64,000 bases of DNA. It comes from Sulfolobales archaeon. Its GTDB lineage: Archaea; Thermoproteota; Thermoprotei_A; Sulfolobales; AG1. The notes under the pieces were generated by a model. The model was given only the letters and a program-made list of their open reading frames with translations, was not told the origin of the DNA and made no database searches. The first letter of the stretch is position 1, and each line of letters opens with the position of its first letter. Positions 552 to 44,686 of this stretch are shown piece by piece. The stretch lies in assembly GCA_038867615.1 (NCBI GenBank), contig JAWBYA010000001.1, positions 448,001 through 512,000 on the forward strand, given 5' to 3'. The position numbers were made by a program, and so were the translations under genes.

Positions 552-1627
552 ATAGCATTTCTAGTATGGGAATATGCCAGAGAGATCACAGTAATAATAA
601 CCATTCTGGGCACCTTAATACCGATCCTAGCCACTCTTGGGGGTATGACATACCGGCTTGGAAGGAGGTTTGCATTAATAGAAGCAAGGTTTAGAGAAAT
701 AGACAGAAGATTCGAAGCTATAGACAAGAGATTCGAGAACATTGATAAAAGATTCAGCGAGCTAAAAGAATACGTAGATACAAGATTTAATGAATTAAAA
801 GTCTATGTTGATTCAAGGTTCAATGAATTGAGAGAATATGTTGACTCAAGGTTTGATGATCTGAAGGGCTATGTTGATTCTAGGGTTTTGAGAATCGCTG
901 AGGCTTTTAGATCTTACCAGGAGTTCTTCATAGAGTATCTATCTTATCAAGGCGTAATCAGGGCTCCTCTAGAGGCTGAAATGCTTAAGAACGAGGCTTC
1001 CAGAATGATGAAACTAGCAACAATGAACCCCCTAACCAAGGAGGAGTGGGAGAAGATCAAGTACTACTTAGAGAAGGATCAATTGACACTCGAAGAAGCA
1101 TTAGAATTCAGAGAGCTTGCTAGAAAGGTTACAGACGAGTATGGGGTTCGGGCTTCATTGCGGTTGATTTTTATACCAACTGCTCTTCCCTTGGCTTCAT
1201 GGGCCTCAGGGCTCCTTTCATTGGAGCCCTTATCATTGGCCTCCACCCATTCGGGGTGACCCTAACCCACAGCTCCCCTTCATAGATTTTCTCTGGTTCA
1301 TTGCTGTGGGGGAACCCCCACATCCTGGATCTCTTTACCTCTACCCCGCCCACTCGGGTCTCTATCCCCACCCTCATTGTTGGGCGGGCATCCCCATTAG
1401 AATAATAGAGCTTATATAATGTTCCACAGAGAAAAATTCGATATCAACCCCTATAAACCATCACGAAATCCGAAACAGCTGGCTACGGTGATAGACCTGA
1501 GGCTTGGAAGCTACACATACTAGCATCAATAAGAGTGGGAGAAGCGATGAGGAGAATGAAAGAAGAAATGGAGAAGAAGAAAGAGAAAGAAAAACAGGAG
1601 AAAGAAGGATCTAAGCAGGAAGGTTAG
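552..1627 (+). pseudogene. Membrane-anchored coiled-coil repeat protein (PaREP-like crenarchaeal family) interrupted by a 344 bp element
   Basis: 7-aa (RFxxIDK) and 11-aa (ELKxYVDSRFx) repeats. Removing 1145-1488 gives in-frame EYG-DRPEAWKLHILASIRVG... ending at TAG 1625-1627. A hydrophobic N-terminal segment is in frame from ATA 552; first ATG is at 645. Confidence 0.8.
1143..1488 (-). mobile_element. Non-autonomous IS607/IS200-605-like element (MITE), copy 1, carrying putative omega-RNA
   Basis: Closely matches 44335-44686 (inverted). GG at both junctions, no terminal inverted repeats. Internal TATA at 1411-1419. Interrupts an ORF. Confidence 0.85.
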
Positions 1628-40109: not shown

Positions 40110-40188
40110 TGGTGCGGCGGCCGGGATTTGAACCCGGGATTTCCGGCGTGGCAGGCCGGCGTCCTAGACCAGGCTAGACGACCGCCGC
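40110..40188 (-). tRNA. tRNA-Gly(GCC), CCA encoded, no intron
   Basis: Cloverleaf GCGGCGG...CCGCCGC-A-CCA, anticodon arm CCGGC-CT-GCC-AC-GCCGG, T-loop GGTTCAAATCC. Confidence 0.97.
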
Positions 40189-42488: not shown

Positions 42489-43331
42489 ATGCGGAGCGGG
42501 ATGAGTGAGAAAGATATAGAGAGGGCTTTGCTCGAGATCCTGAGAACAAGATCTAGGGAGCTTGTAGAGGCTATTCTGAATACCATCGAGACAAGCGATG
42601 ATCTCATGCTAAGACTCGCATCAATAGTCTCCAAAAGACTAGCAATACCCCTTAATGTGGCTACCCAGAGTGATCTAAAAGCTCTCGAAGGCACGATCAG
42701 ATCCGAGATCGCCGGTCTCGGACAGAGGATCACTGGTTTAGAATCTACTTTGAAGTCTGAGGTTTCAAGGCTTGATCAGAGGATCACCGGTCTGGATCAA
42801 AGAATCGCAGGACTTGATCAGAGAGTTTCTGGTTTAGAGTCTACTTTGAAGTCCGAAGTCTCAAAACTAGATCAGAGGATTGCTGGGCTTGATCAGAGGA
42901 TCGGTAAGGTTGAGGGTGAGTTAAGCAAAGTTAGGAGAACGGTTAGGGATATTGCAAGAACTATTGAGAACATAACAATCTCTATCGAGGAGGAGGCCAG
43001 GATTGCTGTGGAGAGGTTTTTAAAAGAGAGAGGTTTGGAGATAAGCATCAGGCCTATCGTGCTTGATAGGAGGTATGAGTTCGATATATACGGCTCGCGC
43101 GATGGTTTCGTGATCGTTGGTGAAGCTAAGACAAAGGCTAGTGAGAGGCTTGTTGACAGGCTTGCAAAGAGAATCGAGGAGGCTAGAAAGAAATGGCCAG
43201 AGAAATTCACAGGCAACGTTATTATGGTGCTTTACTGCCTAAAATACATAGGCGACCCCAAGAAAGCCGAAGAAAAGGGAGTATGGCTAATAGAATCCTC
43301 GAGGGAGCTAACAAAAATCCCCCTGGCCTAG
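42489..43331 (+). CDS. Coiled-coil repeat protein with C-terminal PD-(D/E)XK-like domain
   Basis: Heptad repeats (I.GLDQR) with a 96 bp internal duplication; EFDIYG...GEAKT. Confidence 0.75.
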   Translation: MRSGMSEKDIERALLEILRTRSRELVEAILNTIETSDDLMLRLASIVSKRLAIPLNVATQSDLKALEGTIRSEIAGLGQRITGLESTLKSEVSRLDQRITGLDQRIAGLDQRVSGLESTLKSEVSKLDQRIAGLDQRIGKVEGELSKVRRTVRDIARTIENITISIEEEARIAVERFLKERGLEISIRPIVLDRRYEFDIYGSRDGFVIVGEAKTKASERLVDRLAKRIEEARKKWPEKFTGNVIMVLYCLKYIGDPKKAEEKGVWLIESSRELTKIPLA

Positions 43332-44334: not shown

Positions 44335-44686
44335 CCGTAGCCAGCTGTTTCAGGTTTCATGATGGTTTATAGGGGTTGATATTGAATCGTAGTTCTACAA
44401 TAATGGAACATTATATAAGCTCTGTATTTTATTGGGATGCCTGCCCAGCAATGAGGGTGGAGATAGAGACCCGAGTGGGTGGGTTAAATAAAAAGCCCAG
44501 GATGTGGGGGTTTCCCCACAGCTATGAACCCGAGCAATGCTATGAAGGGGAGCTGTGGGTTGGGGTCACCCTGAATGGGTGGAGGCCAATGATATGGGCT
44601 CCGATGAAAGGAGCCCTGAGGCCTATGAAGCCAAGGGCTGAGCGGTTGATATCAAGCAATATCAACCGTAGTGAAGCCCGAACCCC
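44335..44686 (+). mobile_element. Non-autonomous IS607/IS200-605-like element, copy 2
   Basis: Starts CCGTAGCCAGCTGTTTC, ends GAAGCCCGAACCCC, TATA at 44411-44419; colinear with copy 1. Confidence 0.85.
44434..44686 (+). ncRNA. Putative omega-RNA-like structured RNA with three kink-turns
   Basis: Downstream of a TATA box; helices and GA/GA motifs conserved between copies 1 and 2; 5' end approximate. Confidence 0.6.

Follow-up and report, generated by a model that had tools for sequence, protein, structure and literature searches.

What kind of sequence is a repeat of some 350 bp that recurs in opposite orientation within the same stretch of an archaeal genome, folds into hairpins and carries no gene for its own mobility? 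The question arises from a stretch of 64,000 nucleotides of a Sulfolobales archaeon (hereafter the window), which corresponds to positions C1:448001-512000 of the source assembly (G000; 2.22 Mb, 28 contigs, 94% complete); the DNA sequencing runs containing this stretch are hot-spring metagenomes, and among the runs listed for 1000-1650 of the window none is an RNA run. Copy 1 of the repeat lies at 1143-1488 of the window (346 bp, both GG dinucleotides counted) and has its tnpB-sense strand on the minus strand. Sense positions given below are calculated as 1489 minus the window coordinate, which makes window position 1488 sense position 1. Copy 2 (44335-44686, 352 bp) is oriented the other way, with the plus strand as tnpB-sense. 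By its origin and anatomy, the repeat is almost certainly a protein-less, non-autonomous derivative of an archaeal insertion sequence of the IS607 family. The explanation as a whole, which adds use of an element RNA in trans and retention of the element by this route, is considered probable, and use of the RNA by the nuclease TnpB, argued by analogy and taken on its own, has about an even chance of being right.

Copies in the window and in the assembly

The two window copies share 85% identity, the similarity ends exactly at the element ends, and the flanks are unrelated. An earlier note, made from the letters of this DNA, had described two intact copies of a protein-free, IS607-like element. 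Both copies are real, but the count referred to the window only and was too low, as blastn of the whole assembly gave 51 matches to the element, 17 of which span the full length. A finer search of the assembly returned 114 pieces, and a search for the termini identified 45 left ends, 36 right ends and 26 paired elements. The pairs fall into two size classes, 344-358 bp (14 elements) and 251-294 bp (11 elements), plus a single element of 1649 bp. The assembly contains at least 17 full-length copies and at least 11 shorter deletion forms, which is far above chance.

Within either window copy, no transposase open reading frame (ORF) was found, in agreement with the earlier description. The sole notable ORF in copy 1 is a frame of 68 amino acids on the minus strand (1171-1377) reading ...MWGFPHSNEPEKIYEGELWVRV.... 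The element ends are not terminal inverted repeats either, as had also been seen before; there is just one imperfect inverted repeat in subterminal position (15 nt, 80% complementarity, 1154-1168 against 1443-1457), which is based on a GGTTGAT motif. GG is present at both junctions of copy 1 (TAT-GG...CTAC-GG-TGA), a feature first read from the window sequence and now borne out by empty sites. From the TTATATAA box (1412-1419) down to 1143, copy 1 is rich in hairpins, as expected from the previous description of a TATA box near one end followed by a helical region, and the two guide sequences that had been predicted do adjoin the GAACCCC end of each copy. A classical miniature inverted-repeat transposable element (MITE) was considered and rejected, as there are no terminal inverted repeats and the 2-nt crossover dinucleotide alone is repeated at the junctions. 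Where the term MITE is used here, it is meant loosely for a miniature non-autonomous element.

Origin by deletion from a tnpB-carrying element

The same genome contains an intact tnpB-only element with the same ends (C1:11135-12700, 1566 bp), which can be regarded as the parent, and a second long element with the same ends and a frameshifted tnpB (C1:50095-51743). Read from its first ATG, the ORF of the intact parent encodes a protein of 457 amino acids (P0001, C1:11373-12743). P0001 matches PF07282 (Cas12f1-like TNB domain) in Pfam with an E value of 7.9e-14 and, in a sequence search, Cas12f and TnpB chains of the PDB. An AlphaFold model of P0001 with a mean predicted local distance difference test score (pLDDT) of 73.5 was matched by Foldseek to Cas12f, ISFba1 TnpB, Fanzor2 and ISDra2 TnpB (best E 1e-12), and as modelled, the protein is a TnpB/Cas12f fold with a zinc ribbon. 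The residual frame of the element (MWGFPHS...ELWVGV), which the earlier note had likened to TnpB C-terminal tails, proved to be the tail of this protein (...KMWGFPHSNEPEEIYEGELWVGVTLNGWRP...).

Alignment to the parents accounts for the element segment by segment. Sense 1-49 is 80-88% identical to positions 1-49 of the parents. Sense 66-78 (AACATTATATAAG) is identical to positions 200-212 of the intact parent, the ATG of which is at 239, and the parental TTATATAA box begins 35 nt before this tnpB ATG. A box-to-ATG spacing of 35 nt fits an archaeal promoter with a near-leaderless mRNA. Sense 101-147 matches parent 1248-1294, in the zinc-ribbon coding part, at 75%, with C-G in the element where the parent has U-A, and sense 161-346 is 88% and 84% identical to the last 190 nt of the two parents. 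Read in this way, the element is a tnpB-carrying element minus three internal stretches, namely the interior of the left end, nearly all of tnpB, and 82 nt that separated the zinc-ribbon stem from the tail. Retained were the 49-nt left terminus, the TATA region of tnpB, the stem from the zinc-ribbon region and 186 nt of tnpB tail plus right end. The previous claim that only a promoter and an omega RNA were kept was correct for these two segments and overlooked the retained left and right ends.

One might also think of an independent family of structured non-coding RNA, or of a gene for a small protein encoded by the 68-amino-acid frame (MRVG...MWGFPHS...), as both strands of the element fold better than shuffles (z -3.1 and -3.8) and copy 1 does contain an ORF. 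Against this, every segment is explained by homology to the tnpB 3' end and to transposon ends, the insertion is polymorphic, the encoded tail is predicted to be disordered within TnpB, and no Rfam family matches the element. In the window, no family of Rfam 15 reached its gathering score except tRNA, and the best permissive match had an E value of 0.32 and a score of 20 against a gathering score of 74, a negative with little to say on an omega RNA, as this scaffold corresponds to no curated model. An origin of this kind is therefore hardly credible.

Regarding the tnpB genes themselves, the ORF of the parent passes the right end and ends only after another 43 nt of flanking DNA (C1:12700-12743), and in the relatives the TGA within the terminal ATGAA motif closes the frame. 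A second TnpB lineage is present in the genome (C6:23953-25287), 43% identical, with an intact ORF of 462 amino acids and the same right-end architecture ending in ...ATGAGACCCAAACCCC. It could also serve or compete for the element RNAs.

Assignment to the IS607 family

With P0001 as the tblastn query, 37 of 151 genomes of the order yielded relatives, and 30 loci were fetched. At 18 of the 30 related tnpB loci, an upstream ORF that is adjacent to or overlaps tnpB carries the TnpA motif ...LRPKEVC..L..., and all four such ORFs tested against Pfam showed HTH_17/MerR followed by Resolvase, which is the domain architecture of IS607 TnpA. Orthologous tnpB genes were found behind a TnpA with a MerR-type helix-turn-helix (HTH) and a serine recombinase in other genera. 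The left end of the element aligns with the DNA upstream of tnpA at five loci (L043, L050, L051, L053 and L054), with the shared pattern ...CCGTAG..A.CTG.TTT....TTTCAT.A.GGTTTATA.GGGTTGATAT. Right ends all terminate in ATGAA(G/A)CC(C/T)(G/A)AACCCC, even next to TnpBs that are only ~40% identical. The serine-recombinase TnpA in relatives, the homologous left ends and the empty sites with a single GG uphold the IS607-like nature that had been proposed. A search for an autonomous tnpA/tnpB parent, suggested at that time, was successful in part, with a tnpB parent in the same genome and a cognate TnpA in relatives but none found in this assembly.

A PATE, or palindrome-associated transposable element, of the IS200/IS605 type, mobilised by a Y1 transposase, would resemble the element in several respects, since PATEs are likewise protein-less, rich in hairpins, derived from tnpB and devoid of terminal inverted repeats. 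However, a Y1 transposase (PF01797) had no match in this genome, with controls positive in 6 of 14 genomes. The empty site has a single GG and the occupied site one at either junction, and relatives have a serine recombinase as partner; these points also speak for IS607, and assignment to IS200/IS605 is regarded as extremely improbable.

Two candidates for a recombinase partner were rejected. In the sole PF00239 match in the assembly (C23:6589-7203), the catalytic domain precedes the HTH, which is the ordinary domain order of resolvases and invertases, and there is no tnpB nearby. The IS607 copies of the sister species G002 and G003 (L079, L080) belong to another lineage, with a TnpA 53% identical to the query and a TnpB of 411 amino acids, and show no similarity to the ends of the element. 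As a separate observation, the resolvase/invertase-type serine recombinase of C23 (C23:6589-7361, 205 amino acids) lies near a contig end. The terminal stretch of C23, some 130-170 nt, has further copies at or close to the ends of C11 and C17, and shorter parts of it are present in C12, C14, C19 and C27. To judge from this recurrence, the terminal sequence of C23 is an unassembled repeat.

Insertion site and flanking DNA

The locus orthologous to that of copy 1 is empty in the two sister species G002 and G003, where the DNA is 88% identical. The empty sites read ...GACGAGTAT-GG-(C/T)GATAGACC... with one GG, and the occupied site in the source assembly reads TAT-GG[342 nt]GG-TGATAGACC. From one GG in the empty site and GG at both junctions of the occupied site, it follows that a single target GG ends up at both junctions, without any other duplication. 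One contig of metagenome run X7 also joins position 1142 to 1487, a weak junction with 2 ambiguous letters and 30 letters on the shorter side. Copy 1 is inserted within a host ORF, the last 42 codons of which are replaced by 37 element-encoded codons; the orthologue in G003 (L072:1396-1938) is intact and has 180 amino acids.

For copy 2, a second empty site was not found in G002, and G001, G003 and G005 had no match. The left flank of copy 2 (44334/44335) is 92% identical to L116 (G002:C18) up to the junction, after which L116 continues into unrelated DNA that is not the right flank of the source assembly. This pattern points to a rearrangement or to another insertion at the same point.

Counted on the sense strand over 44 left termini, position -1 of the flank is G in 41 and the element starts with CC in 40. 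At -2, A was counted in 23 of them, T in 12, C in 8 and G in 1, and at -3, A in 23 and T in 11. Beyond the right end, the flank varies except for T at +1 in 19 of 36 right ends. Together with the crossover CC, the target motif reads (A/T)(A/T/C)G-CC, compared with C-CC at the same place of the right end. For the IStron of Clostridium botulinum, which is of IS607 type, a transposon-adjacent motif (TAM) of TGGG versus a right end of TCGG, with discrimination at -3, is described (10.1101/2023.11.20.567912). By analogy, (A/T)(A/T/C)G before CC would be the TAM, and the right end CCCC would be spared by its difference at -3. The flank logo set against the right end offers a testable TAM for an uncharacterised thermophilic clade of TnpBs with an altered RuvC-III motif.

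Promoter and fold of the predicted RNA

The TATA box was present in all 46 distinct copies from G000, G002 and G003, as TTATATA in 35, TAGTATA in 6 and CTATATA in 5 of them. It starts 29-31 nt before the stem-loop P0 in 28 of the 46, the copies where the pattern found both, and a transcript from this box would accordingly begin at about the stem. P0 has perfect arms of 8 bp, and of 329 ungapped cells in its alignment 286 are Watson-Crick and 21 are G-U pairs. The TTATATAA box is predicted to act as the promoter in the gene-less copies, and its position ~30 nt ahead of the first scaffold stem amounts to a concrete prediction of the RNA start.

For the right end, 19 sequences were aligned, 17 of which are linked to tnpB and come from 17 genomes, the other two being the window copies. 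Most helices were obtained by RNAalifold and P7 was added by hand, and the structure is in part derived from the same 19 sequences. It comprises 44 pairs with 95.6% of the cells paired. Changes on both sides were found in 8 pairs and 43 cells, as compared with 13.9 cells in shuffled alignments, and none of 500 shuffles reached 43. Likewise, the covariation score was 0.175 versus 0.094 after shuffling, with none of 500 shuffles as high. When the partners were slid by 1-3 columns, pairing was at most 52% and the score at most 0.073, a control that is generous to the structure because of its partial derivation from these sequences. Compensatory changes are plain in P4, P5, P6 and P7, with 3 of the 11 pairs of P7 changed on both sides. 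The secondary structure of the right end is conserved with compensatory changes. The tail of P0001 that is encoded by this region (residues 379-457) is predicted to be disordered (pLDDT 25-36), which fits conservation of the right end for RNA reasons. The RNA was oriented by the promoter and by homology to the 3' end of tnpB; wobble counts did not contribute. From its motif composition, P7 likely doubles as a binding site for TnpA besides its place in the scaffold.

Possible use of the RNA in trans and retention of the element

These features could be connected in the following way. The TATA box would drive a tnpB-sense transcript of ~250 nt that starts at the first stem and runs through ...GAACCCC into the flank, and its 3' end would be a guide matching the neighbouring DNA. 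In trans, the element RNA would associate with the sole intact cognate TnpB encoded in the genome (C1:11373-12743). Excision by an IS607 serine recombinase would leave ...(A)G-CC directly before the guide-matching DNA; the ribonucleoprotein would recognise and cut this empty site, and recombination with a sister copy would restore the element. The occupied site, ending in CCCC and therefore different from the TAM at -3, would be left uncut. Retention of this kind is described as demonstrated for IS605 and IS607 elements.

Several results weigh against such a role. An IS607-type TnpA query had 0 matches in this 94% complete assembly, and within the genus the cognate TnpA type was found in G005 only, on fragmentary contigs; the family appears to be stranded in this genome today. 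Copy 1 has A rather than G at the TAM-like position -1. In the tnpB-linked right ends, 28 G-U and 24 A-C mismatches were counted, which gives no strand signal, and the stems of the gene-less copies show 123 A-C versus 158 G-U mismatches. Rare alleles per site amount to 0.90 in paired, 0.81 in unpaired and 0.84 in left-end regions. This even spread over the copies looks like neutral decay, and purifying selection on individual copies found no support in the uniform density of rare alleles. Furthermore, three deletion subfamilies without central helices occur at 3-5 loci each with identical breakpoints, and since these scaffold-deficient forms have multiplied, spread requires the ends only. DNA cutting, as opposed to binding, is also not assured for a TnpB clade with glutamine at the third RuvC position.

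Much of this would be expected if the element were an inert relic, that is, an IS607 end pair only, in which promoter and fold are inherited baggage overlapped by recombinase sites and the RNA is either not made or not used. The lack of a cognate TnpA in the genome, the evenly distributed rare alleles, A-C mismatches about as frequent as G-U, and the multiplication of subfamilies without central helices are all in line with it, and the GGTTGAT motif of P7 and of the left end could be kept for the recombinase alone. However, what the three separate deletions spared is precisely the TATA 13-mer, the first stem and the right-end fold in full, and the TATA box came to lie 29-31 nt ahead of the stem, whereas a mere end pair would need no sense 50-300. 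The full-length class is the most numerous among the paired elements (14 of 26), and the linkers made by the deletions are the least conserved parts, with a majority fraction of 0.67-0.69 versus 0.85-0.96 elsewhere, promoter and stems included. Neutral decay of the copies would also be expected if selection on a selfish element acts on its source copies. An inert relic is thus possible but rather doubtful, and retention by an RNA used in trans is kept as the preferred explanation.

With regard to spread, 5 of 17 copies of the source assembly have an orthologous partner among 32 copies fetched from G002 and G003, a number of pairs too small for testing rates. Insertion sites are for the most part species-specific, and the family was therefore active after the split of these three species. 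A further observation concerns contig C7 (69 kb), on which three of the five copies with an orthologous partner (C7:20142-20494, C7:27768-28115 and C7:66950-67286) are 98-100% identical to G003/G002 loci over 1.1 kb including the flanks, in contrast to the chromosomal locus of copy 1 with only ~88% identity to G002/G003. Judged by this identity, C7 could represent mobile DNA exchanged not long ago, or else an artefact of binning.

The TnpB nuclease and a possible regulatory role

An alignment of 21 TnpBs of the clade, P0001 and 20 relatives, shows D207 and E287 in every sequence. Q365 (R364-Q365; LDRQ..AS.NIY) occupies the place of the canonical third RuvC aspartate in all 21, and D363 is D or N. 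Typical TnpBs are described to have a DRDxN motif at this position, and branches with a rearranged RuvC-III exist, some of them near-exclusive to archaea and linked to serine recombinases (PMC10691335). The nuclease of the clade may be rearranged or inactive. The Q motif was also found in TnpBs sitting behind tnpA, which makes it a trait of transposon TnpBs of this clade and not a sign of domestication. SisTnpB1 of Sulfolobus islandicus was considered as the closest characterised enzyme and set aside, as it is described as belonging to IS200/IS605 elements with a TTTAA TAM.

A TnpB altered in RuvC-III might also bind without cutting and be guided by the dispersed cassettes to neighbouring host genes, similar to TldR. 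The invariant Q365 with D or N at 363 would be compatible with such an exapted regulator, as would the location of copy 1 inside a host ORF. In addition, 36 guides of 18 nt gave 12 extra near-matches (<=2 mismatches) versus ~3.3 expected by simple arithmetic. However, the same Q motif occurs in relatives behind tnpA in mobile IS607 elements, and a survey published in PNAS in 2023 deems conserved rearrangements of RuvC-III probably active (PMC10691335). Insertion sites are mostly species-specific, with an orthologous copy for only 5 of 17, and the copies appear to decay neutrally. The extra guide matches involve common flank motifs of the TCTAGA type; TCTAGA lies within 60 nt in 6 of 36 right flanks versus ~1.4 expected from its genome-wide density, and both observations may reflect insertion into a common intergenic motif. 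Such an exapted regulator is considered very improbable. The same low credence is given to the broader idea of a scattered guide library, in which dozens of cassettes, each equipped with a promoter, serve the Q365 clade and, provided that its TnpB binds without cutting, modulate the host genes at their insertion sites. If it were true, hyperthermophilic archaea would offer an intermediate, carried by transposons, on the way to TldR-like regulators or to a multi-guide array.

Features of the two window copies

Table 1. Features of copies 1 and 2 of the IS607-derived element, in window coordinates
Feature	Position	Strand	Basis or remark
Copy 1, non-autonomous IS607-derived element	1143..1488	-	Boundaries set by empty sites in G002, G003
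Left-end junction GG (CC on sense), core dinucleotide	1487..1488	.	Empty site; CC start in 40/44 left termini
Right-end junction GG (CC on sense), final two bases of ...GAACCCC	1143..1144	.	AACCCC in 32-36 of 36 right ends per position
Left-end terminus, sense 1-49, CCGTAGCCAGCTG...GGGGTTGATATC	1440..1488	-	Homologous to left ends of tnpB-only parent and tnpA-bearing IS607 relatives
TATA region AACATTATATAAG, predicted promoter	1411..1423	-	13/13 match to parent 200-212; TTATATAA = 1412-1419
Stem-loop P0, sense 101-144, CCCGCCCA...TGGGCGGG	1345..1388	-	Derived from zinc-ribbon coding part of tnpB
Right-end module, sense 161-346, putative omega-RNA scaffold, helices P1-P7	1143..1328	-	tnpB 3' tail and right end
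Penultimate hairpin P7, sense 306-329	1160..1183	-	Inverted pair of GGTTGAT(A/G)T motif; one more in left end
Predicted guide, copy 1, ATACTCGTCTGTAACC (sense)	1127..1142	-	Flanking host DNA inside interrupted ORF; guide use proposed as in IS607 TnpB systems
Host ORF interrupted by copy 1	645..1259	+	Intact orthologue in G003
Copy 2 (352 bp)	44335..44686	+	Left end from 44335; 85% identity to copy 1
Copy 2 TTATATAA box	44411-44418	+	Sequence
Copy 2 P0	about 44440-44483	+	Sequence
Copy 2 right-end module	44497-44686	+	Sequence
Predicted guide, copy 2, CTGCGAGGCCCTACAA	44687..44702	+	DNA adjoining right end; predicted

Elsewhere in the window, a tRNA gene on the minus strand (40113-40188) is the sole Rfam match at gathering score, and two tandem units of 96 nt with 76% identity (42708-42899) probably lie within a coding region.

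Comparison with known systems

The idea of protein-less omega-RNA elements is already published, as are IS607-derived MITEs in this archaeal order, and to the extent covered by the sources cited below the element is no new category. Stand-alone omega RNAs are reportedly mentioned by Altae-Tran et al. in 2021. For annotation, the assignment explains a multi-copy repeat resembling a structured RNA, and an interrupted ORF, in this genus.

Among the closest systems is IS607 with TnpA(Ser), TnpB and an omega RNA (right-end element RNA, reRNA). IS607 TnpA(Ser) is described to act on core GG, which ends at both junctions (10.1101/2023.11.20.567912), and the element shares this core GG and the lack of terminal inverted repeats. 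It also resembles IS607 systems, as far as these are described, in an omega RNA at the tnpB 3' end running into the flank, which is predicted here, and in the serine recombinase with MerR-type HTH in relatives. With the C. botulinum IStron, it would share a TAM that includes the dinucleotide and a right-end terminus differing at -3. Unlike the IStron as described, the element is gene-less and archaeal, its motif is (A/T)(A/T/C)G-CC instead of TGGG, and there is no group I intron; moreover, the TnpBs of the clade linked to it carry Q as the third RuvC residue.

PATEs are said to "often encode" omega RNAs that need a TnpB encoded elsewhere, in trans (Meers et al. preprint, PMC10055086). The PATE-like IS200/IS605 elements of Geobacillus stearothermophilus are comparable in being protein-less, in consisting of ends plus omega RNA and in occurring in many copies beside tnpB-only elements (PMC10055086). 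According to the same description, they are moved by a Y1 HUH transposase in single-stranded form, next to a TAM. In contrast, the element described here belongs to IS607, the serine-recombinase type, crosses over at GG and has an archaeal TATA promoter fused ahead of the scaffold.

In Staphylothermus marinus, "MITEs" of ~260 nt that are similar to the DNA upstream of one-ORF elements of the IS607 family were reported (Anderson et al. 2009, PMC2678158). They come from the same archaeal order as the relatives are grouped here, and by their description they are alike in having one-ORF IS607 parents, in their multiple copies, in their size of ~260-350 nt and in disrupting ORFs in some cases. Unlike the element, they are described as flanked by inverted repeats, and they are not linked to a guide RNA in what that paper describes of them (PMC2678158). 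SMN1 of S. islandicus is a non-autonomous element of 320 bp and is said to depend on ISC1733 (PMC3718332). Compared by description, both are gene-less and archaeal, measure roughly 320 bp and rely on a transposase in trans; SMN1 differs by its tie to ISC1733. ISC1733 is a member of IS200/IS605 as opposed to IS607, and the original paper on SMN1 is reportedly that of Berkner and Lipps in 2007.

Finally, tnpB-only (IS1341-like) elements consist of ends and tnpB without tnpA, and the direct parent at C1:11135-12700 is one of them, whereas the element under study has lost tnpB too. It would thus represent a dissected archaeal case in which a transposon has shed all its genes, keeps its ends in order to be moved and a promoter and scaffold in order to be retained, and borrows both proteins.

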